DNA of 64,000 nt. Origin: Patiria miniata. Taxonomy: Eukaryota. Positions 33,777-64,000 of the stretch are shown one piece after another. The notes under the pieces were generated by a model. It saw only the letters and a list, made by a program, of their open reading frames with translations. It was not told the origin of the DNA and did no database searches. Where the stretch lies: contig NW_024037073.1 of NCBI RefSeq assembly GCF_015706575.1, positions 20,022,740 to 20,086,739 of the forward strand, in the 5' to 3' direction. The position numbers and the translations under genes were made by a program. Each line of letters begins with the position of its first letter. Position 1 is the first letter of the stretch.

Positions 33777-33902
33777 CTCCTCGTAGACCTGAGGAATGTG
33801 GGCTTCAGTGTCCTCCATGGTGATCAGCCATTCCTCTCCGTTCTTCCTGACCACGCCATGGTCGTCCTTGAAGGTACGGGTTGCAGTGACGTGGAGTGCT
33901 TT
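33777..33902 (-). CDS. MVP: MVP exon 4 (KALHVTATRTFKDDHGVVRKNGEEWLITMEDTEAHIPQVYEE)
   Basis: Six-frame ORF 33678..33923(-); catgcag acceptor and gtaggt donor; aligns to human [43 protein letters not shown]. Confidence 0.9.
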
Positions 33903-34019
33903 CTGCATGAAGAAAATTACCAAAAAATGTTCATCAATTTGTGGGTGATAGTTATTAACCCTAACCTTCCCAAATCATCCAAAATTCTCTTCGCAAAATG
34001 GGGTATTTCGCAGGATTGA

Positions 34020-34345
34020 GGCTATATGGCAAAAATGTGTGTCTGATTTTGGAGGATGCGCTGTCAAGATCTTATTAGGCCGGATCTTGTGTTATTTATG
34101 CTCAGTGGTGCATAACTTTAAGCCTAGATTATACTTGAAATCCTCCGCACTGCTCCAGGATGTCACTGGCTGTGCCTCAACATATTGCAAGTGATTGCTG
34201 GAGGATTTTGCAAGATCGAGGCAGTGGTCGTCCTCCAAGGACCACACTCAAAAAATAACGGATGAAGTTGGAAGATTGAGACTGCATGCAAGTTTTACAT
34301 GGAGGCAATTGGAGGATTGTGCAGGATTGAGGCTGCATCCTAGCA
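34020..34345. repeat. Copy of the dispersed ggattttgcaggattgagg repeat family, in MVP intron 3
   Basis: Homologous to 60995-61200, 20215-20425 and 4130-4440. The break in homology of the MVP partial duplicate falls inside this element. Confidence 0.75.
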
Positions 34346-34420
34346 AAAAATGCCTGGGGAATTAGGGTTAAGTGATGGGTGACTTTCATACAAAAGGGCA
34401 GAATGCCGTAGATGATGTAC

Positions 34421-34774
34421 CTTGTCTGTCAGCACGTAGGCATTCACCACGCCCACCACCTCCTCGTAGGCCCCCGGCAGGTAAGCGCCAACCTTTTTGA
34501 CCAGCCACTCTTCCCCGGTCACTCTGGCATCCCCCTGTCGGTCCAGTGTCTCCTTCCTTGCCCGCAGCTTGATGGCCTGGTTGGCCTTGATGATGGTCGC
34601 CCGGACCGTCTCGTCCACGACGACTTCCTTGCGGGGGATGTAGGTGCCCGGACCTTCAAAGAGCCACTCGTCGCCGGCCACGCGCTTGGTCTTGGCCACG
34701 GCGTCGTCGAAGTCTAGGATAGCGCGGAGTCGGAGGGCCGAGTTGGCTGGGACTACCTTGAGTGCAGTCACAGG
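34421..34774 (-). CDS. MVP: MVP exon 3 ([118 protein letters not shown])
   Basis: Six-frame ORF 34340..34978(-); tgtttcag acceptor and gtacat donor; aligns to human ..[85 protein letters not shown].. Confidence 0.9.
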
Positions 34775-35480
34775 CTGAAACACAATGGGGAAAAATCTAT
34801 GATACAACAACTGAGTAAACCAGTTGGGAGTCTTATCCACTTCAGGATAAATACATATGGTAATCACATACAAGTCAACAGCCCATTCGATTACTGCCCC
34901 CGCACTTACTCGTGCAAGTGCCACTGCGTTCAAATTAATCCTCACGTGACTTCTCACGCTTACGCGAGCCTGGCCCAAGTAACCGACCCGCTGAGCCCGT
35001 TACTCGGTTAAATGTCCCACGTGTAAGTCTAACGCTGCGGCGGGGAGAATTCAAAAGTGTTTCAGGTTCACTTGACTTCACACTTGTACAAGACGACGGG
35101 ATGAAAGTCAAGTTTTAAAATTTAAACATAGAGCAAGGATATACATGGGATTTCTTGTTCACTTTGGAAGAGCAGTACAGTGGTGGCCACCACGGCTCGC
35201 TTTCGACGGCTCGAATCCACTATGCAAAGAGGATTTAATCGCCGCAAGACCTCTTGACTCGGTTCGGTTGCTCTGGCTCGACCTGGAGTAACCCGCGATG
35301 ATTCGTTTATTGCTACAGATTGCACATGTGCATCTATACCCAACACGAAATTAAGGGTAAGCTTGAGGGAAGTAATCAAATGCGCTGTCTGTGTCTGTAC
35401 AGCCCTACTGCTTTAAGACCAATAAATAAAAGTAACCAACAAACGTCGAGAGAAACAAATAACAAAACACAGCAAATTAC

Positions 35481-35676
35481 CAGTTTCAGGATTTCTCCCG
35501 GGTAGAGAGGGAATGGTTCTTGAGTCAGACGGATCTCCTGGTCGGCGTGGTTCAGCTTGATCTGTCCGCTCTGGTCCTCAATCACCGAGCCGTCCTCGTT
35601 GCGCTGGACAGGGTTCTCAATGATGCAGTAGTGACGAGGGGGGACCATGGCCATCTTCTCGGGACCGAAGATGACC
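35481..35676 (-). CDS. MVP: MVP exon 2 ((R)[65 protein letters not shown])
   Basis: Six-frame ORF 35376..35654(-); ctttttag acceptor and gtaatt donor; aligns to human [65 protein letters not shown]. Confidence 0.9.
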
Positions 35677-35924
35677 CTAAAAAGGGGGAAAAGGAAAGGA
35701 CGGAGATCTTGAGGCTCAGAAATATATTTTTTGTATCAAACGTCTAATGCGAAATATTTAGGATTGACTGTGCCTTAAAGCTGAGATCTGAGTATGGTCA
35801 CATTCGCACGGCCATGTTGATGAAATTCAATCCCGTGCCAACATTGCTCCATGATCTTGGAAAGCTCAAGCCATGTGAGGGGGTAGTGTCTCGTTATTTT
35901 GGAAACCTGAAGGGATGGTAAACT

Positions 35925-36183
35925 AAAGAGAAGGTAACCTGAAGGGAAGGTAGCCTAAAGGGAAGGTAGCCTGAAGGGAAGGTAACCTGAAGGGAAGGTA
36001 ACCTGAAGAGAAGGTAACCTGAAGAGAAGGTAACCTGAAGGGAAGGTAACCTGAAGAGAAGGTAACCTGAAGAGAAGGTAACCTGAAGAGAAGGTAACCT
36101 GAAGAGAAGGTAACCTGAAGAGAAGGTAACCTGAAGAGAAGGTAACCTGAAGAGAAGGTAACCTGAAGGGAAGGTAACCTTGT
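35925..36183. repeat. 16-bp minisatellite (gaagggaaggtaacct / gaagagaaggtaacct) of about 16 copies in MVP intron 1, immediately 3' of the exon-1 donor
   Basis: Direct reading; the homologous position of the second MVP copy (about 63460-63520) carries a single unit only. Confidence 0.9.
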
Positions 36184-36207
36184 TCAAGATTTGATGATGT
36201 GTCTTAC

Positions 36208-36383
36208 CTTTCATGGTCCTGCCTGATGAATGTGCGGGGCCCAGTCTCCACAGTGGTGACATTTGTGTTGTGGTTGAGCACGTGGATGTAGTAGTAGGGT
36301 GGGATCCTGTAGATGGACTCCTCCGAACCACTCCCGCCCGCAAAGCCGAAAGGGGCACCGCCACGCTTTCCCTTTTCTGTCAT
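36208..36383 (-). CDS. MVP: MVP first coding exon ([58 protein letters not shown])
   Basis: ATG at 36383; gtaaga donor; aligns to the human N-terminus [37 protein letters not shown]. Summed over all 14 exons the CDS is 2595 nt, giving 864 aa (human MVP is 893 aa). Confidence 0.9.
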
Positions 36384-37029
36384 TTTGATTGTTTATTCTG
36401 TAATTAAACATATTAGAATATTACAATTAAGATTTATTTCTGGAAATATTGCACAGGACACATGTATCACTGATTAGTCCCTGTGGTACCAAGTGCATGT
36501 ACAGAAATCTGTAGAGAGAAGATAATTCCAAAATCCTCCAAAATCCTCTTTGCATAAAGTGGAAGATTTCGAAGGATTGAGCCTGTACGGCAAACCTGTG
36601 TCAGTTGATTTTGGAGGATGCATTGTGTTAAGCCAATTGTAAAGATCAAAGTTCATTTTTAATAAAGTAATTACAACCTTAAGCTTCAACACATCACACA
36701 TTCCAGGCAACCCGCCTTGTTTATCCAAGTAAGGTTTTGGTTGGATATTAAAATGTCACAGATTAGTTTCCAGTGTTGACACCTGACGCTCCCTTCTTCT
36801 GAAATCTCTCCAATAACACACTACAATGCTTTTTAAATTATAAAAAAAAGATTTCAATATCCTCGACTTAAAGGCAGAGTACATCATTTGCAGCGTTCCA
36901 AAAAGTAACTGACAAAGTTATTGCTGAAAAGCATACTTGGTTTAAAGATGGTAATGGCACTAAACTCCCTGTGAAATTATTCTTTCCGCCATGCTGTCAT
37001 GAAGAAAACAAAAAGAGAAGGCAATTTCC

Positions 37030-41799: not shown

Positions 41800-43345
41800 A
41801 CGGATGTACGCCACTGCCCTTGGGTGACACTGGGACGACTTTAAGGCAGGTTTTATCCGTGATGACAAAAACATTTCTTTGTGGTGACAACAACATTGGT
41901 TTGTCCTAATATTTTTATAAGCTTATTTAACCTATCCTGAACATTAATTAAAGGAAATTGCAAACCAGTCCGGTAGGTAATGATTGAGTTATTGTTCAAG
42001 CAACGCGTGTGTATTTTCTGTACACTGAGACGGCCTTAAGACAGGTTTTCTCCGTGATTACACAATTTTGTTTGTGACTGCAACATTGGTTTGCCTTAAT
42101 ACTTTATATGCTTATTTAACCTGCACTTAACAATAATTAACGGAAATCCAAAACAGTACAATAATTATTTAATGAGTTATTGTTCAAGCAACGCGTGGGT
42201 TGTTTCTGCGCGTTCAATAGTCGGGAGTATTTTCTGTACACTGGGACGTCTTTAAGGAAATTAAGGCAGGTTTTATCCGTGATGACAAAAAAAGTTCTTT
42301 GTAGTGACTGCACCATTTGTCTGTCCTAATATTGTATAGGCTAATTTTACCTATCCTTAACATTAATTAAAGGAAATTTTAAACCAGTCCGGTAGGTATT
42401 GACTGAGTTGTTGTTCAAGCAACGCGTGGGTTGTTTCTGCGTGTTCAATAGTCGGGAGTATTTCCTGTACACTGGGACGTCTTTAAGGCAGGTTTTGTCC
42501 GTGATTACACAATTATTGTTTTGGGTGACTGCAACATTGATTTGTCTTAATCCATTATAGGCTTATTTGAACTTTACTTAACAATAATTTACGGAAATTT
42601 CAAAACAGTACGATAACTATTTAATGAGTTATTGTTCAAGCAACGCGTGGGCTGTTTCTGCGTGTTCAATAGTCGGGAGTATTTTCTGTACACTGGGACG
42701 ACTTTAAGGCAGGTTTTCTACGTGATTACACAATTATTTCTTTTGGTGACTGCAACTTTAATTTGTCTTAATACCTTATAGGCTAATTTTACCTATCCTC
42801 AACATTAATTAAAGGAAATTTCAAACCAGTCTGGTAGGTATTGATTGAGTTATTGTTCAAGCAACGCGTGGGTTGTTACTGCGTGTTCAATAGTCCGGAG
42901 TATTTTCTGTACACTGGGACGTCTTTACGGCAGATTTTCTCCGTGATTACACAATTATTTCTTTTGGCGACCGCAACATTGATTTGTCTTAATACTTTAA
43001 AGGTTGATTTGACTTATACTTACTAATAATTAACGGAAATTCCCAACCAGTACGACAAGTATTTAATGAGTAAATGTTCAAGCAACGCTTGGTTTGTTCC
43101 TGCGTGTTCAATAGTACGGAATATGTTCTGTACACTGGGACGTCTTTAAGGCAGGTTTTATCCGTGATGACAAAAAAAGTGTTTTGGGGTGATTACAACA
43201 TTGTTTTGTCTTAATACTTTATAAACTTATTTAACCTATACTTAACAATAATTATCGGAAATTCCAAAACAGTACGATAAGAATTTAATGAGTTGTTGTT
43301 CAAGCAACGCGTGGGTTGTTTCTGCGTGTTCAATATCTGCGTGTT
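41800..43345 (+). repeat. About 7 tandem copies of a 210-220-bp unit (..ctgggacgtctttaaggcaggttttatccgtgat.acaa..ttaattaaaggaaatt.caaaccagtccggtaggtattgactgagtt.ttgttcaagcaacgcgtgggttgtttctgcgtgttcaatagtcgggagtattttctgtacact) directly 5' of the Penelope-like ORFs
   Basis: Periodic near-identical units; probably the tandem-repeat 5' region of the retroelement. Confidence 0.8.
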
Positions 43346-43698
43346 CATTATCTACTGTTTTCATCCACAGGTTTTTACTTCCCATTTGTTTTCTCTCCTT
43401 TTTTTGACAGGTCACAATAACTTTTGCTCTCTCCTTTCAATGCCCCTGTTTTTCCCTGTTTGCTTTACTTCTCATCTTGTCATGTCTTTTTCCCCCTTTC
43501 TAACATTTTCTTCCCCTGAGTAATAACCCACAGTTTGCTTCCCTCTGCAGTTTCATTGTATAACATTGTGTTTTTCGAGATCATCTGTTTTCCTTTTCAG
43601 TACACATTTCCTTTTGTATAATAACTCCGTTTTTTTTCTCCAGTTTATTTTGTCAAATTCTGATTGCACTACTCCTCTCCACAGTTTTTCTCCCATGT

Positions 43699-46425
43699 TT
43701 GTTCCCTCCTTCGATCATGTCTAACCAAAGATACGTTCGCTTGTTTCAGGAACTTAGGAAACTTAAAGAGAAAGCACTACATTATTCGTATCATCGAGAC
43801 AACTACAGATTCTACACACTAACCAATTTCATTCCCACAGGTTTGCAGGTTAAATTTGACCCAGCCCTTGGGTCTCTGTCTACCCCACTTCGCAAGCGGT
43901 GGAACAGCACACTCCATAGTACATCTCTCAGCCTCATTCGTATTCTAACAGAACATTGTGATGTTTGTCTCAACAGCTTCAACCAAGATATTTCCTGTCT
44001 TCAAGCAGAACTTAGATCCATCTGCTCAGAAGCTCGTTTTGCGCAATTTACCAGTGAGATCGATACTGGTTTATCTAAACTTGAATCTGTTCTTAATTGC
44101 AGGAGAAATGGTAAGATTGGTCGTCTTGTCGCCAAACAGCAACAGTACAGACAGCGACGTTTCAAGCGTAACATACCCCCTGAGGCTGAGCAGTCAGCCC
44201 CTCCATCCACAGTTATTAACCTCTCATCATCTACCCTTTCAGATTCAGAACACAGCCTGCTCTCCAAGGGACTCAACTTCTGCCCCACTCCCCCCACAGC
44301 CTCAATCAGGTTGAGCTCAGTCAGGACCTCACTGACTATACCGCAGAATTCGCCTTCGTGAATTCTTCCTTGACTCACCATGCACCCATGGATCCAGAGC
44401 CATTTTACTGCAAGAGTAAATGGGCACCACCAAAGAACCGTGTTCCTTCCCTTGAAACTTACATACAGGTTGTTAGTTCACAAATTAATTCAAGCGATCA
44501 TTCCACCCATTGGACTCATGACAACCTCCCTAGAGAAGAACGTGAGGCCCTTAAGACTCTACGAGCACGGAAGGACATCATCATCAAACCAGCTGACAAG
44601 GGCTCTGCTGCTGTTGTCATGGGCCGTCAGCAATACATCGATGAAGCCATGAGACAACTCAACAACCAAACTAACTATAAACCCCTTGACACTGATCCAA
44701 CAGGTACCTTTTCAAAGGAGATTCAACAGACACTGGACGAAATGCATGACCGTGACCACCTCTTCAAGAAAGCTCACAAGTTTCTTTCCCCAGTCGATTG
44801 TAGAACAGCTAGATTTTACCTTCTTCCCAAGGTACATAAACCAGATAACCCAGGGAGACCCATCATATCTGGCAATGGTTCCCCCACTGAGAATATCTCT
44901 TTTTGTTGACCGTTTTCTCAAGCCTCTAGTGCCACAGATTCCATCATATATTCATGACACTCCTGATTTCCTCCGTAAAATCTCAGGTATTCAGAACCAG
45001 GTCCCCAACACAGCTATCATCGGTACTTTTGATGTGTCCTCTTTGTACACCAACATTCCCCAAGATGAAGGGATTGCTGCCTGCTCTTCAGCTTTGGCTA
45101 AGAGCAGTCACGACTCACCGCCCATTTCTGATATAGTATCCCTCATGAACCATGTTCTAACTAAAAACAATTTTTCGTTCATGGGTAAGAATTTCCTACA
45201 GGTACATGGCACCGCTATGGGTACACGGATGGCACCATCAATGGCCTGCCTATTCATGAGCCAACTTGAACAGCGCATGTTGGCGTCAGCCCCGTGCCGT
45301 CCCTGGGTCTGGTGGCGCTATATTGATGACATCTTTTTCATCTGGACCAGTGATGGATCTAGCCTCACAGCATTCATTAATCACATCAATTCCTTCCATA
45401 GGACCATCAAATTCACAACCGAATACTCAACCAAGGATACCCACTTTCTGGATGTCAAGGTTCTAAAGACGGACGATGGTTTGATCACAGATCTCTTAGT
45501 TAAACCCCCAGATAAACACCAATATCTCCACTCAACCAGCTGTCATCCCCGACACTGCAAAACCAGCATAGCCTACAGTCAGGCCCTCAGACTCCGTCGA
45601 ATCTGTTCTAAAGATTCCGATTTTATCCACCACTCACAGGAACTTAAGAAACACCTCGTCTCCCGGGGTCATAGCTCCCTGGCAGTCCATCGAGCAATCC
45701 AGAAAGTCAAGGCTCGCTCCAGGGAGTCAGTACTTTCAAAAAGACCTGTTTAACAACAGAGTTCCAAGGAGAAAGTTCCCTTTGTTGTCACTTTCCACCC
45801 CTCACTTCCCCCCATTTGTACAATAACCAGTTCTAACCATCATATTCTTCACACGTCAGATCGACTTCAACGTGCTGTACAAGAAGAACCCATGGTTGCC
45901 TACAGACGGCCACCCAGTCTCAGGGATCTCATTGTCCGGGCAGAAGTCCCCCCCCCCCCCTTAATGATAATGTTAACCCCCCTTTGCCACAGTGAACTTT
46001 CAGGTGTCCCAACACCTCCAAATGCATCCTCGGTAGACAACACATCAGAGAATCGGACTCCTTCACCAGCCATACCGGTGGTACCACCCATAGGACAAGG
46101 GGTCATGTCACCTGCACCACCACCAATCTAATCTATTTAATATCTTGCAAAGTTTTTGGTGTTCAATATATAGGTGAAACGAGAACTACACTCAAGAGAC
46201 GTTTCTACGGCCACAGATCCACAGTCAACACCCATAAGCTGGATACACCCGTAGGACATCATTTCAATCTTCCTAATCACTCAATTTCTGACATGATTTT
46301 ACAGGGCATTGAGGCACTAGGAAACCACAGAGAGATTGTTCGTCCGAGTAGAGAGAAATTTAATATGGATAAGACGTCTCCAGACCATCCAACCCCATGG
46401 TCTGAACATCCAAGAAGGAAATGAC
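43699..46425 (+). mobile_element. Penelope-like retroelement: reverse transcriptase (..YIDDIFFIW.., ..FLDVKV..KPPDKHQYLHSTSCHP..) followed by a GIY-YIG endonuclease (LIYLISCKVFGVQYIGETRTTLKRRFYGH), with ORFs fragmented over 3 frames
   Basis: Six-frame ORFs 43699..44361, 44358..44909, 44686..45753 and 45892..46131, plus an unlisted frame at 46100-46425 carrying the GIY-YIG motif. Frame breaks coincide with homopolymer runs such as C13 at 45948-45960. Confidence 0.8.
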
Positions 46426-47559
46426 TAATAACTTTTTGTCTTTACCTTCTCCTTTTCACCACAGATAAGCCACCCCCCCCCTCCAGTCTGCCTCATTCAC
46501 CAATTAACTACCTTTCTCTCCCTCTCCTATCATTGACTTTGTCCTTTGTGTTCCCCACCTCTTGTGGTCAACCATCCCCTTCCCCCAATCCCCCTCCTTT
46601 CTGTTCAGCCACCTGCTTTCTCTGTGTATTTTCCTCTGCATCATCTATTTCCACTTGACTTATGTTAAATACATTTTTACAAGATGTACATGCTGAAGAT
46701 AATTTAAGGGGGTGGAGACAGGGCAGGCTGGGGGGGGGGGGGGGGTTCCCTCCATTTTAAGACTTCCTAAAACAGGTTACATGGGCTCAACAGCGCTTGC
46801 TGTAAGTGGTATGTTTGTCTGAATCCCTGTATGAATGCAAAAATGTTGTGTCAGGCAGGCAGGGTAACGACTTGAACCACATCCGTGCCTCCATTCCCAT
46901 GGTTCAAATCAGTGATTTAGTCAAGTCCCTGCAAGTCCATCACAAGTCCTCCAGTCCCAATATAACTCACAAGCTATTCAAATGAGCTTTGACAAAGGCA
47001 TTCCTTTGTTATTGTTCATCCACTGTTACTTGTGCCTGGACTTGTGATGGACTCAAATACATGTTCAATGACAACAGAAATTATTTCAAACGTAAATATA
47101 CGAGTATATATAGTCACTACATGCCAAACCTTGCAAAATTTAAGTCAGCCAAGTACATAATTAAGCACATTTGACGTATACAGTGAAATCTGATAACTCA
47201 AAACAAATGTCAAGTCAAACAAAGTATCCATTCCCTTCAGTATAAGTATAACAATGATATACAACCCTGCTTAACTCAAAACTCTGCTGAAGTCAAATTT
47301 TGAACCTGTTCCCTTGAGGTTTGATTTACCAAGATTGATATTCTGGACCCGCCTCTAATACTGAAGTTTAGAGGTGCCTAAACTTAAAGGGAAAAAAAAC
47401 CTCTGCAGTGAAGCCCAATGTAAAAGCAAAAGATTTGGACAATACACTGATGAATAGTTGAAATAACTTTGAGGAAACAAATTTAACAGCACCACAGCCA
47501 CCTTTGAGAAGTGTGCTTATTTGTTCAACGGGGACACCCATGAGTAGACCTCTGATGCA

Positions 47560-51100: not shown

Positions 51101-51607
51101 AGGTTTGGCACATGAAATTTTTAAACTACCATATCTCAGAGACAAAATATGCATTGGCAATCATTTTTTTGGTCACTTACTCAATATTTTAATACCATTA
51201 AATTGAATTTTTGAAATATGCTCAGCAAGTGGGTGAAAATTGCTGTCAAAAATGGGTTTCCTTCTTTTTTGCATCACCCTCTATACTGTCACATTTACTC
51301 CTTTGATGGATTGGAAGGTTTGCGTAATCTCATTGCATATGGAGAGGCCCTGACTGGTGCTGCCGTGGTGGGTGGCTGCTGTTGTTTAGACTGTGCTGCT
51401 TGCTGTTGAGGCTCAGGTGATTAGGCAGGTGGATGCGTATCAGGTTTTTTGACGGCTGTGGCTGTGGCTGTGGCTGTGGGCAGGACAACAGTTGGTGACT
51501 CGGTTTTTACCACTACTGGGGCTTGTTCCCTAACTGGTGGAGTAGCTTGGGGCTGTGGCTGGGGCTGTGGTACAGACTGCGACTGTGGCTTGGCTTCAGT
51601 CTGTGGC

Positions 51608-52291
51608 TCAAGTTTGGCCTGGGTTGGGGTCTGGGACTGAGACGTCAGGCTCTGAAGTGCTTGGTGCTGTTGTTGTTGTTGTTGCTGTTGCTGCTGCTGT
51701 TGTTGGGCCTCTGCGCTTTTTGAAGTTGCTGCAGTTGCTGCTGCGCGGCAGCTGTCGCTTGCAGCCGCGCCTGACCGTTCCCGTCTGCTTTATCTGAGCC
51801 TGCTGTGTCTGGGCCTGCTGCACCTGGCAGTGTGCTGCCGATTTCAGCGCAGCCTGCCGTTCCGCCGGTGACAGTGACAGCGCTTTGGTCGTTTGGGCAC
51901 TCAGGGTGACCTGCACCGGCGATCCTGACTGTATGGTCCCCTGGGGTTGTATGGACGCCGTCACCTGACTCGAGCTGGCAACCTGAACTGATGCCGCTCC
52001 ACTAGTGCTCGCCTGGCCCTGTCCCCTGGACGGCTGAGTGGCTGGAACGCTCTGCACAGTCACCGTCTGTTGAGGCTGTAAGCCGCTGCCCTGTGATCCC
52101 TTCGTCATGGGTAGGGTTTGGGACAGGCCACCCACAGTTTTTGCCACGGTCAGCAGCGAGTTGCCTGAGACCGTCGGGATGATAGTGACCGGTTTGCCGG
52201 CCTGTTGGATGGACAGCGTGGCCCCAGCTCCTGTCCCTGATTGCTTGACTTGCTGCTGCAGCTGCTGTCGAACTGTGGCCAACTGCTGGAC
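51608..52291 (-). CDS. Gln/Ser/Thr-rich low-complexity protein, most 3' identified exon (VQQLATVRQQLQQQVKQSGTGAGATLSIQQAGKPVTIIPTVSGNSLLTVAKTVGG..); the 3' end and stop are uncertain
   Basis: Six-frame ORF 51608..52378(-); ttctacag acceptor at 52292-3 in phase 0. Downstream (CAA/CAG)n and (CCACAG)n tracts are open in other frames, so the true end is unresolved. Confidence 0.4.
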   Translation of the reverse strand, partial: VQQLATVRQQLQQQVKQSGTGAGATLSIQQAGKPVTIIPTVSGNSLLTVAKTVGGLSQTLPMTKGSQGSGLQPQQTVTVQSVPATQPSRGQGQASTSGAASVQVASSSQVTASIQPQGTIQSGSPVQVTLSAQTTKALSLSPAERQAALKSAAHCQVQQAQTQQAQIKQTGTVRRGCKRQLPRSSNCSNFKKRRGPTTAAATATTTTTAPSTSEPDVSVPDPNPGQT

Positions 52292-53481: not shown

Positions 53482-53628
53482 CTGGCCTACTCGCTGCACT
53501 ACCGCAGGGCTGCCCTGAGCCTGGGAGGTCGTGACCCTTTGAACTCTGACCTGCTGTATTTGCTGCGGGGTCAACGTGCTGACCTGCTGTGAGAGACGTT
53601 GCCGCTGGCTGCTTGTTGTCTGCACAAC
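53482..53628 (-). CDS. Q/S/T-rich protein exon (VVQTTSSQRQRLSQQVSTLTPQQIQQVRVQRVTTSQAQGSPAVVQRVGQ)
   Basis: gacacag acceptor and gtgagg donor; phase 0 in and out, consistent with the neighbouring exons. Confidence 0.5.
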
Positions 53629-54647: not shown

Positions 54648-54818
54648 CTGACTAGCCAGCGAGCCAGTGACAGCGACTGATACCGACGGGGAGCTGATCC
54701 TGATCTGGGCTTGGCTGATGGTCTCTGAGGCTCCTTGCAGCTGGGTCTGGCTGACTGCTGTGTTGCCTGTCTGCATCTTCTGCTGTTGAGCCAACAGTTG
54801 CTGGGCTTTGACTGTCAG
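54648..54818 (-). CDS. Q/S/T-rich protein exon (LTVKAQQLLAQQQKMQTGNTAVSQTQLQGASETISQAQIRISSPSVSVAVTGSLASQ)
   Basis: Six-frame ORF 54621..54833(-); tcccag acceptor and gtatgg donor; phase 0. Confidence 0.5.
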
Positions 54819-55235: not shown

Positions 55236-55661
55236 CAGTTGTTGCTGCTTGGTCTGGTGCTGACCCTTCTGCATCTGCTGTATCTGGGTGAAGTTGATCT
55301 TGGGCCTGGCCACCATGCTGGGGAGAGTCAGGGGCTTCATGGGGATGTTGCCTTGCTGCTGCTGAGCTTGTTGCTGCTGCTGCTGTTGTTGAGCTCCCCC
55401 GGCCCCCTGGGCCTGCGCCTGGGCCTGGGTGAGACCCTTGGGTGCTCCCGCCGTTGCTGCAGCATTGCTGACTGTCAGCCCGCTGAGGGTGATACCCTTG
55501 AGTCCGGCCACCGTGGTGAGGGGCAGGGTGGTGATGGCCGTGGTGGTGGTCTTTTGGCTCTTCTGGCCCTGGCTGGCCAGGAGTTGGCTCTGGCGCTTCA
55601 GGATGGCCGTCAGTTCCTCGTTCTTGATGGTCCGGGTTATGGTCTTGCCTCCCAACTGCAT
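55236..55661 (-). CDS. Q/S/T-rich protein exon (MQLGGKTITRTIKNEELTAILKRQSQLLASQGQKSQKTTTTAITTLPLTTVAGLKGITLSGLTVSNAAATAGAPKGLTQAQAQAQGAGGAQQQQQQQQAQQQQGNIPMKPLTLPSMVARPKINFTQIQQMQKGQHQTKQQQL)
   Basis: Six-frame ORF 55125..55661(-); cccttag acceptor and gtgggt donor; 426 nt in phase 0. Confidence 0.55.
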
Positions 55662-55889: not shown

Positions 55890-56775
55890 AAATACATGAT
55901 TTCTATTGTTTTAGCCACTGTGAACTTGACCCTTGACCTTTTGGCCCCAAATTCAATAGGCTTCTTAGGATTACCAAGAACAATCCACAAACCAAATTTG
56001 AAGTTCACATGTAAAGTATTTCTCAAGTTATCGCGCTGACAAGATTTTTATTGTGTTAGCCACTGTGAACTTGACCCTTGACCTTTTGGCCCCAAATTCA
56101 ATAGGCTTCTTAGGATTACCAAGAACAATCCACAAACCAAATTTGAAGTTCACATGTAAAGTATTTCTCAAGTTATCGCGCTGACAAGATTTTTATTGTG
56201 TTAGCCACTGTGAACTTGACCCTTGACCTTTTGGCCCCAAATGCAATAGGCTTCTTAGGATTGCCAAGAACAATCCACAAACCAAATTTGAAGTTCACAT
56301 GTAAAGTATTTCTCAAGTTATCGCGCTGACAAGATTTCTATTGTTTTAGCCACTGTGAACTTGACCTTTGGCCTTTTGGCCCCAAATGCAAAAGGCTTCT
56401 TAGGATTGCCAAAAACAATCCACAAACCAAATTTGAAGTTCACATGTAAAGTATTTCTCAAGTTATCGCGCTGACAAGATTTCTATTGTTTTAGCCACTG
56501 TGAACTTGACCTTTGGCCTTTTGGCCCCAAATGCAAAAGGCTTCTTAGGATTACCAAGAACAATCCACAAACCAAATTTGAAGTTCATATGTTAAGTATT
56601 TCTCAAGTTATCGCGCTGACAAGATTTCTATTGTTTTAGCCACTGTGAACTTGACCTTTGGCCTTTTGGCCCCAAATGCAAAAGGCTTCTTAGGATTACC
56701 AAGAACAATCCACAAACCAAATTTGAAGTTCATATGTTAAGTATTTCTCAAGTTATCGCGCTGACACGATTTATC
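55890..56775. repeat. Satellite of about 6 copies of a 145-bp unit (..ttagccactgtgaacttgacc.ttg.ccttttggccccaaat.caa.aggcttcttaggatt.ccaa.aacaatccacaaaccaaatttgaagttca.atgt.aagtatttctcaagttatcgcgctgacaagattt.tattgt..)
   Basis: Direct reading; lies in an intron of the Q-rich gene and is followed by (CACACCC)n. Confidence 0.9.
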
Positions 56776-57672: not shown

Positions 57673-57864
57673 GACCTGTGCCCTGGCCTGGCCAGCCTGG
57701 GTCAGCTGAGGCTGGGCCAGGGAGGACGTCGTCGCAGCCACCTGGCTGACCGTCACGTTGCTGGTGGGCGGTTTCTGGCCGGACTGGAGCTGTTTCTGCA
57801 CAGCTTGGGCCTGGGCCTCCGCCTGGGCCTGGGCCACCTTGGCTTGGGCTTGGGCTTGCTGCAG
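57673..57864 (-). CDS. Q/S/T-rich protein exon (RLQQAQAQAKVAQAQAEAQAQAVQKQLQSGQKPPTSNVTVSQVAATTSSLAQPQLTQAGQARAQ)
   Basis: Six-frame ORF 57625..57837(-); accaacag acceptor and gtcagt donor; 192 nt in phase 0. Confidence 0.5.
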
Positions 57865-59257
57865 TCGCTGTTGGTATCAAAGAGAACAAGCTCCATATGA
57901 TCTCGGAAGCCGTGGACTCCCAACGAATCTGTGTTGCACTTTGTGTGGAATGTGTACGCGGAGCAGGCATGAGGGTATTGTCTCCCGGATTATTGCCTTT
58001 CATTGAATGTTTGTTACTAATTAACGGAGAGACACAACTTGTCGAGCTGCTGTCGGCAGCTAAAAACCAGACGACTCTTAGGCTGCATCTGAATCTCTTG
58101 TCTATAGTTCTATATTTTTTGCCTCTATTATTTGCCGCCCATACATGAACCATATACTATCAAAAAGAGTGTTTTCGGATCATTCTAATGGTGCAGTTTA
58201 TTCATAGTGTTACCATTGCAGAAACATTAAGAAAAGTGCTTCAGAAGTATCCAGCCACATTTTAAGGTATGCAGTGCCGTTTGGTCATGTGGTGAAATGG
58301 TTTGCAGTTTAGGTTAACAATTTGAAGTGTGTTGGACAGAAACAGAACCCTCAGCTGTCAGGAAAATCATGAAACATTTTAAATGTTATCTTTTGAAATT
58401 TGTTTGTTACCAAAAAGGGATGTCTCATAGTTTTTATATGTTTCAGACGAATATATATTTTCTACAAATATGCCCCAGTGTAAATTTCATTTCATAAACC
58501 CTTTAAGGCTACTTTAGCGATTTGCAGAAGATATGGCAAATGAGGTATGGACTCCATGAAGAATGATAAGAGATTTAAACTAGAAAGCACTCGGAGAGCG
58601 CAATCTCCGCCAAGGCTAAACAACCCAACCATATTGTTAGTACATCCAACATGAGGATCTTTTAAAATGCTCAATCATGTTCTGAAATCAAAGGGCAGAA
58701 ACACTCAGTATTAATATGTATTGTTCACTTGTTGAAATTGAATACAGAATAATCAAGTGCATATGGCAGAATTGTGCCATTTCCATAGGGTCACTGTTTA
58801 AAATTAGGGTCATAAAACAGGGGCTTGCTAGCCGAGAAGTCTCTAGAGGGACAAGAAGGCTGGCATAATGATTTTAACGTACACCGCCTGTCACTTGCAC
58901 TGTGTGCACAGTATATGGCCCAGCAATGGTCGGGTCCATTAGTTTTTTTGGGGGGGGGGAGGGGTGCCCAAGTTTCATGGCCTATGGCATATTTGCACAT
59001 ACAAAATGGTGAAGAATCCTTAAAAAAAAACCTGCATCAGGATCACGTCCAAAATCTAATGGGTCCGTACTTGTACCAAGGACCACCCCTACACAAATTT
59101 TCATGAAAATCTGCCCACAACTTTAAGAGTTCTTTTATCCTGTTCACAGACAAACCAACCAACTAACCAACACCGGTGAAAACATAACCTCCTTGGCGGA
59201 GGTAACAAAATGTGGGGGACTTTTTTACCTTCAATTATATTATTTGTTTCTACTGAC

Positions 59258-59340
59258 CTTGATTTGTGCCTGCTGCTGTGCCTGAGCCTGCTGCATCAGT
59301 TGCTGTTTGATGGCTTGCTGTTTTATCAGGCTGTACTGAG
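59258..59340 (-). CDS. Q/S/T-rich protein exon ((A)QYSLIKQQAIKQQLMQQAQAQQQAQIK)
   Basis: gtag acceptor and gtcagt donor; phase 1 to 0, joining the upstream exon that ends in phase 1. Confidence 0.4.
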
Positions 59341-59548
59341 CTACCTTAGCTGTGTACAGTCAACAAAAAAGTACACAATTTGACATTATTTATAAAGCTT
59401 TTCTTTTTCAAAATTTTTTGAAATATTATTTATCACAAATCTCTGTAAGGCCCATCACAGACCAGAGGTTGATTTCATACAAAGATGCGTTACAAGACGA
59501 GACAACTTTCTTGAAATCAGCCCCAGTAAAGAATCGCCAAGTGCCTAC

Positions 59549-59747
59549 CTGTCATTGTAGCGGTGGCGGTGGGCGTTGATCTAGCCTGACTGACAGACCC
59601 TGCTGACGTGATGACCACCTGCGTGCCTGATGTGACTGGTGCACGGACCTGACTGGTGATGATGCCTCCTGAGCTAGGGAGGGAGACGTGGGCGATGGTG
59701 GTGCGGACGGCCTGGGCACGGACTACCTGCCCCGGGGGACTTGCAAC
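59549..59747 (-). CDS. Q/S/T-rich protein exon (VASPPGQVVRAQAVRTTIAHVSLPSSGGIITSQVRAPVTSGTQVVITSAGSVSQARSTPTATATMT)
   Basis: gaacaag acceptor and gtaggc donor; low-complexity coding with biased GC3 like the other exons; further 5' exons not identified. Confidence 0.4.
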
Positions 59748-59924: not shown

Positions 59925-60105
59925 GATCAGCGCAATTTAGTCTCTACCTTCACAGGTACCCATTTATACTCCTGGGTGGAGAGAGGCAATTGTAGTAAAG
60001 TGTCTTGCCCAAAAACACAAGCACCATGTTCCCCATCAGGGTTCGAACCCATGTACCACTGCATGAGTCGAACACCAAAACCATTGGACCACGGTGCTCC
60101 ACTGT
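59925..60105 (-). mobile_element. Deu-type tRNA-derived SINE copy
   Basis: Contains ..ggtacccatttatactcctgggtggagagaggcaa.. and a GGTTCGAACCC box. Confidence 0.6.
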
Positions 60106-60290
60106 AACCTTGCTCGAAACCTTGCTAGTAACCTTAACCTTGCTCGTAACCTTGCTCATAACCTTGCCAGTAACCTTGCTAGCAACCTTGCTAGTAACCT
60201 TGCTAGTAACCTTGCTAGTACCCTTGCTGGTAACCTTACTAGTAACCTTGCTAAAAACCTTGCTGGTAACCTTCCCAACTCATCTCAAAT
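60105..60290. repeat. 12-bp microsatellite (aaccttgct[a/c]gt) of about 15 copies
   Basis: Direct reading; the six-frame ORFs made of LVTL or NLAS repeats are artefacts. Confidence 0.9.
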
Positions 60291-60659
60291 TCTCTGACAT
60301 GCAGATAACTAATGCCACTTTCCTTTGGTTGTATAACCTTCACAGTGACTTGCCTGGACTTTCCTCAATACTGCACAAAATCCTCAAAAACCACCTGGTA
60401 AATACCTACGGTTTGTGCACTTTCAGATGAAATGTTTTAGGACTTATGGGTTACAGACACTGTTAAAGAGGCATCACAGCCTGAAATCCCCGAAAATTTC
60501 TTATGTGGGATTGATTACTTATACAGGGGTGTGAGTGACCACTGATAAAAATAGCTGAAAAAGGTGTAAAAAAGCTGAACTTTGGAAATCTCCTACACTT
60601 TTGTACACGGCAAGTGAGGGAAAAAGCTGAAAAAAAAGCTGAAATCCAAAACAAAAAAA

Positions 60660-60990
60660 GCCTAACCACTAGGCCACACTCCCCACAGTGCTCCTGGGTG
60701 GAGTGAGGCAAGTGGGGGCGATGTGACTTGCCCAAGGACGCAACATATGTCCAGCAGCTGGATTTGAACCCCTGACCCTCTTATCATGAGTCACGAACCC
60801 TAAACACTAGGCCACACTCCCCCATTGCTTGAACACATCAAATGCTTGAACATATCAAAAACTTTTCCACATCTGAATCAGCATGCAGGTTATAACTATA
60901 GTGAAACCACAGAGCAGGTTTCGTGACCTGTCCTTTTTATTCCCGCTATCCTTCTTAACCACACATCAACTTTGTCACACATGCTTATAC
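60660..60990 (-). other. Segment homologous to MVP intron 6 (31780-32100), including a truncated Deu-SINE copy, retained in the partial MVP duplicate
   Basis: About 90% identity by eye between 60660-60990 and 31780-32100; homology stops about 12 nt short of the exon-6 donor. Confidence 0.75.
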
Positions 60991-60994
60991 CGAA

Positions 60995-61200
60995 AATATC
61001 CAGGATGTCACTGGCTGTGCCTCAACATATTGCCAGTGATTGCTGGAGGATTTTGCAGGATTGAGGCAGTGGTCACCCCTCAAAGGACCACACTCAAGAA
61101 ATACCAAATGGCGTTGGAGGATTAAAGCTGCATGCAAGTTTTACATGGAGGCAATTGGAGGATTGTGCAGGATTGAGGTTGCATCTTAGCAAAAAATGCC
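60995..61200. repeat. Copy of the dispersed ggattttgcaggattgagg repeat, homologous to 34150-34345 in MVP intron 3 of copy 1
   Basis: Direct comparison. Confidence 0.75.
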
Positions 61201-61266
61201 TGGGGAATTAGGGTTAAGTAATGGGTGACTTTCATACAAAAGGGCAGAATTCCGTAGAAGATGTAC

Positions 61267-61620
61267 CTTGTCTGTCAGCACGTAGGCATCCACCACGCCC
61301 ACCACCTCCTCGTAGGCCCCCGGCAGGTAAGCGCCAACCTTCTTGACTAGCCACTCTTCCCCGGTCACTCTGGCATCCCCCTGTCGGTCCAGTGTCTCCT
61401 TCCTTGCCCGCAGCTTGATGGCCTGGTTGGCCTTGATGATGGTCGCTTGGACCGTCTCGTCCACGACGACTTCCTTGCGGGGGATGTAGGTGCCAGGACC
61501 TTCAAAGAGCCACTCGTCGCCGGCCACGCGCTTGGTCTTGGCCACCGCGTCGTCGAAGTCTAGGATAGCGCGGAGTCGGAGGGCCGAGTTGGCTGGGACT
61601 ACCTTGAGTGCAGTCACAGG
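61267..61620 (-). pseudogene. MVP: Partial MVP duplicate, exon 3' ([45 protein letters not shown]); intact ORF with Q and D substitutions relative to copy 1
   Basis: Six-frame ORF 61186..61629(-); identical splice sites to copy-1 exon 3. Confidence 0.7.
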
Positions 61621-62327
61621 CTGAAACACAATAGGCGAAAAATGTATGATACAAGAACTGAATAAATCAGTTTGGTAGTCTTATCCACTTCAGGATAAAT
61701 ACATATGGTAATCACATACAAGTCAACAGCTCATTCGATTACTTTCCCCGCACTTACTTGTGCAAGTGCCAATGCGTTCAATTTAATCCTCAAATGACTT
61801 CTCACGCTTACTCGAGCCTTGCCCAGGTAAGCGACCCGCTGAGCCCATTACTCGGGTAAATATCCCACGTGTAAGTCTAACGCTGCGGCGGGGAGAATTC
61901 AAAAGTGTTTCAGCTTCACTTGACTTCACACTAGTACAAGACGACGGGATGAAAGTCAAGTTTTAAAATTTAAACATAGAGCAAGGATATACATGGGATT
62001 TCTTGTTCACTTTGGAAGAGCAGTTCAGTGGTGGCCACCGTGGCTCGCTTTCGACGGCTCGAATCCACTTTGCAAAAAGGATTTAATCGCCACATGACCT
62101 CTGGACTCGGTTCGGTTGCTCTGCTCGACCTGGAGTAACCCGCGATCATTCATTTATTGCTACAGATTGCACATGTGCATCTATACCCAACACGAAATTA
62201 AGGGTAAGCTTGAGGGAAGTAATCAAATGCGCTGTCTGTGTCTGTACAGCCCTACTGCTTCAAGACCAAAATATAAAAGTAACCAATAAACGTCGAGAGA
62301 AACAAACAACAAAACACCGCAAATTAC

Positions 62328-62523
62328 CAGTTTCAGGATTTCGCCCGGGTAGAGAGGGAATGGTTCTTGAGTCAGACGGATCTCCTGATCAGCATGGTTC
62401 AGCTTGATCTGTCCGCTCTGATCCTCAATCACCGAGCCGTCCTCGTTGCGCTGGACAGGGTTCTCAATGATGCAGTAGTGACGAGGGGGGACCATGGCCA
62501 TCTTCTCGGGACCGAAGATGACC
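62328..62523 (-). pseudogene. MVP: Partial MVP duplicate, exon 2' (..[65 protein letters not shown])
   Basis: Six-frame ORF 62223..62501(-); only synonymous differences from copy 1. Confidence 0.7.
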
Positions 62524-63524
62524 CTAAAAAGGAGGGAAAGGAAAGGATGGAGATCTTGAGGCTCAGAAATATATATATTTTTGCATCAAACTTCTAATCC
62601 GCAATATTTACCCTCAATCTTTTGGTAGGGATTGAAGACGTCTGTATGGGTGAGCAAGAGGTCATGGGTACAATTCCTATCTAAGAAATCTTGTGGACTT
62701 TTTTTACTGCTTAAATCTAAGAAAGCACCGAATATTCAAAATGCCTGAACAAGTTAAGTCTGTACTACAATATGTCTTATGGCTAATTAATTATTCATAT
62801 GTATGAATGGCATTTCTGCTCGGTGTACACAACGTATATGCGAAAATTGAGTTTTCATGGCACGTAGCGCCGAAATTTTTTTCGCTATGGGCCAACCCGT
62901 GGTCCGATTTTTATGTTTTTGGTATCAAAAGATGCGCAAAGCTCGAGGCTAAAAAGTCATAACAGCTCGGATCGCGAAAATTTTTTTTTAGAAGCTATCG
63001 CGGAAAATGTTGAGGGGGGGGCGGATTCCGCCCCCCCCCCCCGGCCCCTTTATTCCGCCCCCCCCCCCCCCCCCCCCCCCCCCTTTAGGGTTAAACAGCT
63101 AGCCAGTCAATCCTATTTTATGTAGGCTGGGAATTCTTAACTGTTGAAAATAGCCACTTGATTGATTTTGACTGCAAGGGCAACTTGGACCAGAATGTAT
63201 GTTTGCATAGGAGGGTTAACCCTCTCTCCCTCTCTGACTGGCACATTCAACAAAACCATCCCAGCAGTCAAATTCAATCAAGTGACTGTTTTGAACAATT
63301 GCATGCTCCCTCATAAAGCAGGGATTGACTAGGCCTTAAAGCTGGGATCTGAGTATGGTCGCATTCGCACAGCTATGTTGATCAATTCCAATCAAGTCTC
63401 AACATTGCTCCATGATCTTGGAAAGCTCAAGCCATGAGCGGGTGGTGTCTCGTTTATGTTGGTCTGTGTAACTTGTTGCTCTAAAGGGAAAGTAACTTGT
63501 CCATAATTTGATGATGTGTCTTAC

Positions 63525-63700
63525 CTTTCATGGTCCTGCCTGATGAATGTGCGGGGACCAGTCTCCACAGTGGTGACATTTGTGTTGTGGTTGAGCACGT
63601 GGATGTAGTAGTAGGGTGGGATCCTGTAGATGGACTCCTCCGAACCACTCCCGCCCGCAAAGCCGAAAGGGGCACCGCCACGCTTTCCCTTTTCTGTCAT
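63525..63700 (-). pseudogene. MVP: Partial MVP duplicate, exon 1' ([58 protein letters not shown]) with the ATG at 63700 and a homologous upstream region
   Basis: Identical protein to copy-1 exon 1; the 5' flank 63701-63965 is homologous to 36384-36650. Confidence 0.7.
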
Positions 63701-64000
63701 TTTGATTGTTTATTCTGTAATTAAACACATTAGAATATTACAATTCTTTCTGGAAATACAGCACAGGATACATGTATCTCTGATCAGTCCCTGTGGTACC
63801 ATGTGCATGTACAGAAATCTGCAGAGAGAAGATAATTAATCCAAACCTTCCAAAATCCTCCAAAATCCTCTTTGCATATATAAAGTGGAAGTTTTCGAAG
63901 GATTGAGCCTGTATGGCACAACTGTGTCAGTTGATTTTGCAGGATGCATTGTGTCAAAATCTACACCTTGTACATGTTGTAGCTTGTGTTGTCTATAGCC

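Follow-up and report, generated by a model that had tools for sequence, protein, structure and literature searches.

A partial duplicate of the MVP gene as the probable 5' coding module of a young chimeric gene in Patiria miniata

Drosophila jingwei and Sdic are chimeric new genes that arose by partial gene duplication together with exon shuffling. The locus described here, from Patiria miniata, resembles such chimeras in several ways: the parent gene – MVP, which encodes the vault shell protein – is intact, the copy supplies a start codon and a folded N-terminal domain, pre-existing splice sites are used, and unrelated exons are joined in frame. The P. miniata gene also appears to be young and lineage-restricted, and carries a signature of constraint. 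There are differences too. Whereas jingwei involved retroposition, the P. miniata copy keeps its introns and points to duplication at the DNA level; and unlike chimeras of the jingwei and Sdic type, its partner is of low complexity, its breakpoints fall within a MITE and a SINE, and the fusion is predicted from sequence and annotation.

Truncated segmental-duplication pseudogenes offer a second comparison. Like these, the copy is partial, lies near its parent, and has undergone internal deletion, transposon insertion and a change of minisatellite length; unlike these, its exons are intact, have a dN/dS of 0.055, and form part of annotated open reading frames. The third comparison is with MVP itself (rat and human structures PDB 4V60, 2QZV and 3GF5). 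Residues 1-242 of the chimera, comprising the Vault and Vault_2 domains, are 99.2% identical to P. miniata MVP, but the chimera is without repeats R5-R9, the shoulder domain, the cap-helix and the cap-ring, and has a glutamine-rich tail of 539-636 amino acids instead. The chimeric protein is an MVP derivative, not an MVP. A literature search found no paper on this gene or on echinoderm MVP chimeras. We favor the view, at a probability of roughly 0.8, that a young chimeric gene, found in the Patiria lineage only, takes its 5' coding module from this copy.

The duplicated block and its parent gene

The window is the entire 64,000-nucleotide stretch of DNA that was analysed, and all coordinates are positions within it. 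The parent gene (copy 1), the duplicated block (copy 2) and their parts are as follows.

24937-36383, minus strand: parent, the complete MVP gene (copy 1), 14 coding exons, 864 amino acids, XP_038074409
31774-36631, minus strand: parent segment matching copy 2, including 32095-34153, which is absent from copy 2 (self-BLAST and alignment)
35904-36180, minus strand: 16-bp minisatellite of parent intron 1, 17.3 copies; about one unit in copy 2
60658-63957, minus strand: copy 2 as a whole, the block duplicated from 5' MVP sequence (self-BLAST and base-level alignment)
60658-60995, minus strand: MVP intron 6 relic, with a unique part (60826-60995), a tRNA-like SINE unit (60691-60825) and the 25-nt head of a second SINE
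60996-60998, minus strand: deletion junction with three filler bases, parent 34154 joined to parent 32094 (self-BLAST and alignment)
60999-61231, minus strand: first ~220 bp of the intron-3 MITE (TTAACCCTAA...), ended by the deletion
61267-61620, minus strand: exon 3' (354 nt), phase-0 end, donor GTACAT, with R182Q and N235D
62328-62523, minus strand: exon 2' (196 nt), five synonymous differences
62611-63321, minus strand: insertion of ~710 bp in intron 1', private to copy 2, with G/C homopolymer runs and a 37-nt inverted repeat
63525-63700, minus strand: exon 1' with the ATG (176 nt); it holds codons 1-59 of the chimera and differs from copy 1 at a single synonymous site
63701-63957, minus strand: 257 bp shared 5' of the ATG (copy 1: 36384-36631), 6.2% diverged

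The copy-1 gene model (864 amino acids) is 100% identical to P. miniata MVP, XP_038074409. Copy 2 contains coding exons 1-3, introns 1 and 2, a piece of the intron-3 transposon and the intron 6 relic. Self-BLAST with base-level alignment pairs 60999-62610 with 34154-35760 (94.7% over 1613 bp), 63322-63462 with 35761-35902 (86.7%), 63481-63957 with 36163-36631 (90.7%) and 60658-60995 with 31774-32094 (89%); in the self-BLAST of the window these are the only long duplicates that are not transposons. Both copies lie on the minus strand, their ATGs 27,317 bp apart. The original prediction had been made from the letters of this stretch, and its core – a second MVP 5' module some 27 kb upstream on the same strand, being a real paralogous partial copy without exons 4-6 – holds in both the alignment and tblastn. 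It had allowed that exons 4-14 might lie further downstream of 60660, outside the window: within the window there are none, tblastn with full-length MVP at E up to 10 finding no second copy of exons E4-E14.

Copy 2 is a paralogue whose parent was left intact, both being present in the window. Marks of a processed pseudogene or retrocopy are absent: copy 2 has kept introns 1 and 2 as well as pieces of introns 3 and 6, and the origin is therefore duplication of DNA rather than retroposition. Tandem duplication of the whole 27-kb period was considered and rejected, because the spacer is single in the window, the 43 nt upstream of copy 2 are unmatched at the copy-1 flank, and there is only one annotated glutamine-rich paralogue.

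Missing from copy 2 is parent 32095-34153, about 2,060 bp, an interval that holds E4 (33902-33777), E5 (32857-32747) and E6 (32237-32112). The predicted jump from the intron-3 repeat directly to intron 6, with exons 4-6 gone, is seen in the alignment, as is the predicted collapse of the minisatellite. The prediction that homology then gives way to a SINE and a microsatellite was right for the microsatellite (60104-60273), which is outside the block, but not for the SINE: the SINE-like unit lies inside, and homology stops ~25 nt into the head of the second SINE, at 60658. The full intron-3 MITE of copy 1 (34372-33955) has the ends TTAACCCTAA...TTAGGGTTAA, and a copy at 4122-4476 has ends that are alike. 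This repeat of intron 3 and the upstream region shows both a TTAA target duplication and terminal inverted repeats beginning CCC...GGG; we take it to belong to the piggyBac-type superfamily. The unique 166 bp of the intron 6 relic occur in the window only here and in MVP intron 6. Rfam and ARAGORN gave no matches on 59-64 kb, so that the label "SINE" refers only to tRNA-like box A and box B motifs and to the presence of multiple copies. Part of the insertion private to copy 2 recurs at 5090-5183.

The original prediction held that a promoter-proximal region had been copied. The shared sequence upstream of the ATG is short, however, and its features point elsewhere. An acceptor-like ttacag lies 14 nt 5' of the ATG in both copies, and in Asterias a strong acceptor is likewise seen 14 nt before the ATG; the 257 bp therefore most likely lie in a 5'-UTR intron. 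About 120 bp of them belong to a fragment, at 63835-63962, of a TTAA-flanked MITE. Judged by these motifs, the shared segment is most likely part of a 5'-UTR intron plus a transposon fragment, and the promoter of the chimeric gene should lie 5' of 63957, probably outside the window. The MITE runs on upstream of copy 2 and not upstream of copy 1, a continuity which suggests the more speculative possibility that copy 2 occupies the ancestral MVP 5' flank, with an inherited promoter, the full-length gene having split off.

The annotated chimeric gene and its predicted product

Downstream of exon 3' (E3'), which ends in phase 0, seven glutamine-rich exons extend from 59747 to 51608, each placed by a spliced CDS match.

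59549-59747, minus strand: exon 4 (Q/T/S-rich), phase-0 acceptor joined to E3' in X1 and X2
59258-59349, minus strand: exon 5, skipped together with exon 4 in X4
57676-57867, minus strand: exon 6, acceptor for E3' in X4
55236-55661, minus strand: exon 7, tandem acceptors 55661 (X1) and 55655 (X2)
54648-54818, minus strand: exon 8
53482-53628, minus strand: exon 9
51608-52291, minus strand: last coding exon, including the stop codon

When the ten exons in the window are joined – all introns being GT-AG – the resulting CDS gives XP_038074366-68 (X1), XP_038074369 (X2) and XP_038074371 (X4), residue for residue. The first 242 amino acids of the chimeric RefSeq proteins are exactly those of copy 2, Q182 and D235 included, and the start codon of every annotated chimeric isoform found comes from the MVP-derived module. 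Across the junction the predicted protein reads ...AYVLTDK|VASPPGQVVR. The frame stays open for 636 codons past the junction, over seven exons, and the variants keep it: the tandem acceptors differ by 6 nt, and skipping of exons 4 and 5 removes 291 nt. Since MVP exons 3-7 each begin and end in phase 0, the exon 3' donor would keep the frame when joined to the phase-0 acceptors that are next available (59747 or 57867). Read-through of that donor would add 25 codons before a stop. In a word-index protein search, glutamine-rich ORFs between the copies matched P. miniata proteins only, and these carry Vault Pfam domains; their RefSeq names ("eaf-1-like" and "mediator subunit 15-like") are driven by low complexity, mislead, and conceal the origin from MVP. 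The annotated stop adjoins a possible frameshift in a CAG/CAA repeat.

The original prediction had proposed two products. A free truncated N-terminal MVP fragment is disfavored as the main one, no protein of 424 amino acids or fewer that matches copy 2 being present in the protein database. The other, a chimeric transcript, is the alternative that the annotated models back, in that E3' plus the glutamine-rich exons gives the RefSeq isoforms exactly.

The chimeric proteins (781-878 amino acids) consist of MVP residues 1-242 followed by 539-636 residues rich in Q, A, T and S. Residues 20-242 align to rat MVP 3-224, which are repeats R1-R4, and the only Pfam domains are Vault and Vault_2, whereas copy-1 MVP also has Vault_3, Vault_4 and MVP_shoulder. 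The shoulder domain (PF11978) is absent from the chimera, and the window holds no second copy of exons 8-11; the cap-helix coiled coil and cap-ring are likewise absent, the tail being without MVP similarity and exons 12-14 without a second copy in the window. That the glutamine-rich exons might be diverged cap-helix exons of MVP was rejected, no tblastn similarity being found at E up to 10. The shoulder and cap-helix region of MVP is held, from the rat vault structure, to drive particle assembly; having neither, the chimera is not expected to form vaults itself.

For the tail, no Pfam domain was found in the glutamine-rich part, a word-index search for relatives returned only the chimera's own isoforms, and an exhaustive HMMER search with the last exon against 1.84 billion representative proteins found no homologue; its sole match was rejected as a translated satellite repeat. 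The R1-R4 head would most likely act as a folded domain that mediates interactions or localisation of the disordered tail. A more specific proposal is a speculative one: that in this selected new gene the head docks on vaults, or on partners of the MVP N-terminal repeats, and so tethers a coactivator-like disordered glutamine-rich tail to vaults or disturbs the pairing of half-vaults.

Selection on the copied exons and competing explanations

Exons 1'-3' have the lengths of their parents (176, 196 and 354 nt); their frames are open, and every junction is GT/AG. Between the copies 13 of 726 coding bases differ (98.2% nucleotide identity), 11 of the differences being synonymous and two nonsynonymous, with no indels. 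Both the intact frames and splice sites and the R to Q and N to D changes in exon 3' had been predicted, and are as described; the latter, R182Q and N235D, are the only amino-acid changes in copy 2. Since R and N are the residues of Acanthaster and Asterias, both replacements are derived states of copy 2; Q182 and D235 also occur in MVPs of other species. Copy 2 has CAA at codon 182 and GAT at codon 235, and a synonymous T at codons 93, 102, 103 and 104; R182 gives MVP a tryptic cleavage site that copy 2 lacks. Polarity was assigned for these two replacements only: with Asterias, four synonymous sites favor a change in copy 1, two a change in copy 2 and five are undecided, third positions being saturated (56% identical).

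If copy 2 were a non-functional pseudogenic relic, then the RefSeq fusion would be an artefact of annotation, in which evidence from MVP was placed wrongly on the copy and joined up with a transcribed glutamine-rich neighbor. Several observations fit. Exons 4-14 have been lost, while a 710-bp insertion and a 2-kb deletion have been gained; the glutamine-rich part is without homologue or domain; and the fusion proteins are model predictions with names driven by low complexity. Indeed, the isoforms are computational RefSeq (XP_) models, in a region where MVP reads, at 98.2% identity, could be mis-assigned to copy 2, and the searches of the protein databases gave no P. miniata protein derived from transcripts. 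The extra His after K242 in isoform X3, moreover, was not reproduced from the genome by shifting donor or acceptor positions. The pattern of substitution, however, is not that of neutral decay. For exons 1'-3' dS is 0.066 and dN 0.0036, and the non-coding divergence between the copies is 7.0% with 13 small indels, compared to none in the coding bases. Neutral simulation of the copy-2 branch gives an expectation of 18.6 nonsynonymous changes and 0.8 stop codons; two or fewer nonsynonymous changes were obtained in 0 of 20,000 simulations (conditional binomial P = 0.0028, a test based on the 13 differences in exons 1'-3'). Gene conversion as the cause of the exon similarity was rejected, since dS equals the non-coding divergence (0.07); the depletion is thus at nonsynonymous sites only.

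As read from these substitutions, the exons of the MVP-derived module are shown to have been under purifying selection since the duplication, which implies that the module is translated and is of value to the animal. The "decaying segmental duplicate" of the original prediction does not fit this record. Nor does a relic account for the preservation of every splice site in copy 2, or for the long open frame beyond the junction with its in-frame alternative forms, and we regard that explanation as improbable. Had the truncation occurred only very recently, the signal of purifying selection might stem from a longer functional predecessor instead of the fusion as it now stands.

Far less probable is an assembly artefact, with a divergent MVP 5' haplotype misplaced 27 kb upstream, a possibility that the original prediction had raised against itself. 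Low dN/dS is expected of two functional alleles, and a dS of 0.066 with many indels falls within the allelic divergence reported for some marine invertebrates. Against this, the window contains no N bases, both flanks of copy 2 are unique and not homologous to those of copy 1, and an allele would not miss exons 4-6 and then end within intron 6; furthermore, annotated mRNAs splice exon 3' to exons of the unique flank. Equally remote is an alternative 5' end for MVP, with exon 3' spliced over 27 kb to exon 4 of copy 1 to give full-length MVP with a variant N-terminus: the shared strand, the phase-0 end of exon 3' and the phase-0 start of exon 4 would permit it, but P. miniata is represented among the 120 best matches to full-length MVP by the copy-1 form only, and seven competent glutamine-rich acceptors and a terminal exon lie in between.

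Origin and significance

A young chimeric gene thus remains our preferred reading, and its formation may be envisaged as follows. A segment of MVP that began within the 5'-UTR intron, 257 bp ahead of the ATG, and reached as far as the SINE in intron 6 would have been duplicated 27 kb upstream on the same strand. A deletion of 2.06 kb, at the time of duplication or later, would have removed the interval from intron 3 to intron 6, with one breakpoint within the TTAA-flanked MITE. The intact donor of exon 3' would then have been spliced in frame to glutamine-rich exons at 59747 or 57867, a step that can be followed in the sequence and the annotated models. The protein encoded by copy 2 is 99.2% identical to copy 1 compared to 90.5% to Acanthaster, which places the duplication after the Patiria/Acanthaster split; Asterias amurensis has one MVP, with no partial copy within 10 kb upstream, and there the gene is flanked by tocopherol-cyclase-like and LDLa/TSP1/trypsin genes.

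The locus would thus provide a clean and datable case of new-gene birth by partial duplication (~7% neutral divergence), in which all the structural steps can be read from the sequence: the breakpoints fall in a MITE and a SINE, three phase-0 exons have dropped out without disturbing the frame, and a donor already in place has been put to new use. A practical consequence follows as well. Expression of mvp has been reported in larval stress-associated cells of P. miniata (bioRxiv 10.64898/2026.09.20.752982), and in expression studies of this species a probe or read that covers MVP exons 1-3 can be assigned to the wrong one of the two genes. Finally, the function of vaults is poorly understood, and a separate gene that combines R1-R4 with a disordered glutamine-rich tail gives a handle on these repeats outside the particle; should the docking proposal prove true, it would be a natural experiment on the vault N-terminal repeats acting alone.

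Structure of the second MVP copy

The complete MVP (major vault protein) gene, hereafter copy 1, comprises 14 exons on the minus strand (ATG 36383, stop 24937) with a product of 864 aa. In a protein search its translation was 100% identical to XP_038074409 ("major vault protein-like [Patiria miniata]"), the runners-up among the matches listed being Acanthaster planci (92%) and Asterias amurensis (87%), which marks the window as bat-star DNA. Downstream on the same strand come the exons of a gene of ezrin/radixin/moesin type (13872-21901, minus strand), an order also present at the A. amurensis MVP locus, L001, where the counterpart of that gene spans 23122-29961; the upstream neighbours of the Asterias gene (tocopherol-cyclase-like and LDLa/TSP1/trypsin genes) have no counterpart in the window at 36.4-60 kb.

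Self-BLAST and base-level alignment place the partial duplicate, copy 2 (exons E1' to E3'), in four colinear same-strand blocks, 60658-63957 against 31774-36631 of copy 1. Apart from these blocks and dispersed repeats, the window has no long duplicates; it contains no N bases.

Features of copy 2
63481-63957: homology block, copy 1 36163-36631, 90.7% identity
63322-63462: homology block, copy 1 35761-35902, 86.7% identity
60999-62610: homology block, copy 1 34154-35760, 94.7% identity
60658-60995: homology block, copy 1 31774-32094, 89% identity
63700-63525, minus: E1', parental length, open frame, GT/AG junctions
62523-62328, minus: E2', parental length, open frame, GT/AG junctions
61620-61267, minus: E3', parental length, open frame, GT/AG junctions
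62611-63321, minus: private insertion of ~710 bp inside intron 1'
61266-59748, minus: intron 3', holding a MITE fragment, the intron-6 relic, a SINE and a microsatellite
60826-60995, minus: unique part of the intron-6 relic, 166 bp, preceding the SINE in parent intron 6
60104-60273: microsatellite within intron 3'

Aligning the two copies upheld, with minor corrections, the anatomy set out in the original prediction: a second copy of exons 1-3 with open frames and intact splice sites, loss of exons 4-6, a jump in homology from intron 3 to intron 6, and collapse of the 16-bp minisatellite of intron 1 (17.3 copies in the parent, ~1 in copy 2). Parent 32095-34153, carrying exons 4, 5 and 6, is missing from copy 2, and the deletion junction (60996-60998) consists of three filler bases. 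Because the 166 bp of the relic have no further occurrence in the window, the jump reflects true paralogy and not a common transposon. Further MVP exons downstream, a possibility the prediction had raised, were not found: tblastn with full-length MVP detected no extra copies of exons 4-14 in the window. Past 60660 the homology was said to give way to an unrelated SINE and microsatellite; the microsatellite is there, but the SINE unit (60691-60825) lies inside the homologous block. The element is SINE-like, ~135 bp long, and begins with a head resembling a tRNA (GGGGAGTGTGGCCTAGTGGTTAGG...GGTTCAAATCC). It occurs at 13449-13694, 31559-31940 and 60658-60825, with two units in tandem in intron 6 of MVP, and is recognised by neither ARAGORN nor Rfam.

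A chimeric gene built on copy 2

In the interval that separates the two copies, the minus strand carries long Q/A/T/S-rich open frames. A search with the concatenated Q-rich frames returned just three proteins, all on one 26.5-Mb P. miniata contig and all bearing Vault Pfam domains: their N-termini match the 242 copy-2 residues exactly (Q182 and D235 included) and lead into the Q-rich frames. Cluster look-up yields four isoforms – X1 (XP_038074366, -67, -68; 878 aa), X2 (XP_038074369), X3 (XP_038074370) and X4 (XP_038074371) – named in RefSeq "chromatin modification-related protein eaf-1-like" or "mediator of RNA polymerase II transcription subunit 15-like". The chimera is already present in RefSeq, as unrecognised computational models.

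Coding exons of the chimera, all minus strand
63700-63525, 62523-62328, 61620-61267: exons 1-3 (E1' to E3')
59747-59549, 59349-59258: exons 4-5
57867-57676, 55661-55236: exons 6-7
54818-54648, 53628-53482: exons 8-9
52291-51608: exon 10 (last)

Joined with GT-AG introns throughout, these ten exons translate exactly to X1; X2 is reproduced by acceptor 55655 and X4 by leaving out exons 4 and 5, an in-frame loss of 291 nt. X3 has an extra His between E3' and exon 6, after K242, that no donor or acceptor shift tried would yield, and which may be a micro-exon or a model correction. The match of the spliced CDS to X1, X2 and X4 indicates that copy 2, as judged from sequence and RefSeq models, forms the N-terminal module of a chimeric gene that is already annotated. 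Between the products originally envisaged, the chimeric transcript is thus favoured; a truncated N-terminal MVP fragment is not an annotated product, since the database holds no protein of 424 aa or less resembling copy 2. Read-through of the E3' donor adds 25 codons before a stop.

Homology between the copies upstream of the ATG is restricted to 257 bp. An acceptor-like ttacag stands 14 nt before the start codon of the ATG exon in both, and Asterias MVP has a strong acceptor at an equivalent distance, which suggests that the shared 257 bp are probably part of a 5'-UTR intron: the label "promoter-proximal region" is not established, and the promoter driving the chimera is expected upstream of the block, probably outside the window. 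A distinct small duplication of the MVP 5' end is seen in Asterias, another sea star: at L001 9700-10000 the start-exon acceptor, ATG and first ~35 nt are tandemly triplicated, and the three ~120-nt units directly precede the real start.

Residues 20-242 of the chimera align with rat MVP 3-224 of the solved vault structures, which we take to be repeats R1-R4. In the chimera Pfam detects Vault and Vault_2 alone, whereas in MVP itself it also detects Vault_3, Vault_4 and the shoulder domain; with shoulder and cap both absent on testing, the chimera is not a bona fide MVP. Its 636-residue tail (20% Gln, 13% Ala, 12% Thr, 10% Ser) has no Pfam match, and its last exon no accepted homologue among 1.84 billion representative proteins, a lone match being rejected as translated satellite. 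At the C-terminus (51424-51789, minus strand) the annotated frame reads a CAG/CAA repeat as Thr/Ala and stops at 51608, while an alternative frame reads poly-Gln and stays open as far as 51424. Possible causes of the clash at 51608 are a frameshift, a short intron missing from the annotation and an indel in the assembly, and the true C-terminus is uncertain.

Tandem arrays occur at 42011-43335 and 55894-56772: a 221-bp satellite (6 copies, 81% identity) and a 145-bp unit (6.1 copies, 97% identity) in the intron between chimera exons 6 and 7. The spacer between chimera and MVP holds a Penelope-like retroelement (43500-46450, plus strand), with one ORF for a reverse transcriptase (RVT_1, E 4.7e-8) and, after it, one for a GIY-YIG endonuclease (E 4.1e-5).

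Selection on the copied exons

Between the exons of the two copies 13 of 726 coding bases differ: 11 changes are synonymous and two nonsynonymous, the latter being the predicted R to Q and N to D changes (R182Q, N235D), the only replacements (dS 0.066, dN 0.0036, omega 0.055; Nei-Gojobori). Since Acanthaster and Asterias carry R and N, both replacements arose on the copy-2 branch; Q182 and D235 also occur at the corresponding sites of MVPs from other animals. In the aligned non-coding sequence 127 of 1802 sites differ (7.0%), with 13 small indel events; relative to copy 1, E1' to E3' contain no indels. Synonymous divergence is at the neutral level and depletion is confined to replacement sites, which rules out gene conversion as the source of exon similarity. 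Neutral simulations (copy-2 branch at half the non-coding divergence, observed transition:transversion ratio, 20,000 runs) predicted 18.6 replacements and 0.8 stop codons, and in no run did the number of replacements fall to two or below; for the 13 differences a conditional binomial test gave P = 0.0028. The sample is small and the direction clear: for most of their history since the duplication, E1' to E3' have been translated and under constraint. On these counts the suggestion of a decaying segmental duplicate is not borne out.

It is accordingly unlikely that copy 2 is a pseudogene and the fusion models an annotation artefact: although MVP reads could mis-map to exons 98.2% identical, this is contradicted both by the selection signal and by an open frame that runs for 636 further codons over seven exons. 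A haplotype mis-assembly would account for the low dN/dS, but is highly improbable, as it leaves unexplained the unique flanks on both sides, the gap-free window, the missing exons and the splice links into the flank; just as improbable is that the copy-2 exons are alternative first exons of MVP itself, for which no supporting protein appears among the matches listed.

Origin and significance of the chimera

Copy 2 shares 99.2% identity with copy 1 and 90.5% with Acanthaster, and in Asterias there is one MVP, the 10 kb upstream of which contain no partial copy: the duplication thus appears young and confined to the Patiria lineage. MVP exons 3-7 all have lengths that are a multiple of three and are phase 0 at both ends, which would permit in-frame splicing to any downstream phase-0 acceptor. 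In a copy ending in intron 6, exon 6 could have spliced in this way; after loss of exons 4-6, exon 3 could have done likewise.

Members of a TTAA-flanked MITE family with ends CCCTAA...TTAGGG, which we take to be piggyBac-like, hold two of the three rearrangement breakpoints.

MITE copies and fragments
4122-4476, plus: member of the ~420-bp TTAA-flanked family
20136-20440, minus: member of the ~420-bp TTAA-flanked family
33955-34372, minus: member of the ~420-bp TTAA-flanked family, in parent intron 3
36526-36626, 60999-61231, 63835-63962: fragments

The deletion starts at about position 220 of the intron-3 MITE (TTAACCCTAA...TTAGGGTTAA), whose family is represented in the window by four further copies or fragments, and the 5' limit of the block (36631 / 63957) falls within a fragment of the same family. 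The 3' limit falls within a SINE head, homology stopping 25 nt into the second. The 43 nt upstream of copy 2 (63958-64000) show a weak similarity to MITE positions ~286-300, in colinear order with the adjoining fragment (P about 0.02), and include a 10-mer common to two other MITE copies. The copy-1 upstream flank shows no MITE resemblance at the colinear position, and at 36660-36700 weakly resembles the MITE 3' end (P 0.02-0.04). This hints that copy 2 retains the older 5' flank, 43 nt being too short to settle the matter; the resemblances, also too short to decide, may be what is left of recombination between MITEs at the edge of the duplication.

With classic chimeric genes the chimera shares a partial, intron-retaining duplication and exon shuffling, a mechanism comparable in principle to that of Drosophila jingwei and Sdic. 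Our search found no literature on this gene or on MVP chimeras in echinoderms. In P. miniata, mvp and tep1 are reported to be expressed in larval stress-associated cells (preprint, bioRxiv 10.64898/2026.09.20.752982), and the chimera could confound exon 1-3 probes or reads in such work. It would also be a neat example of a new gene, and might prove useful as a natural means of dissecting the N-terminal repeats of the vault.
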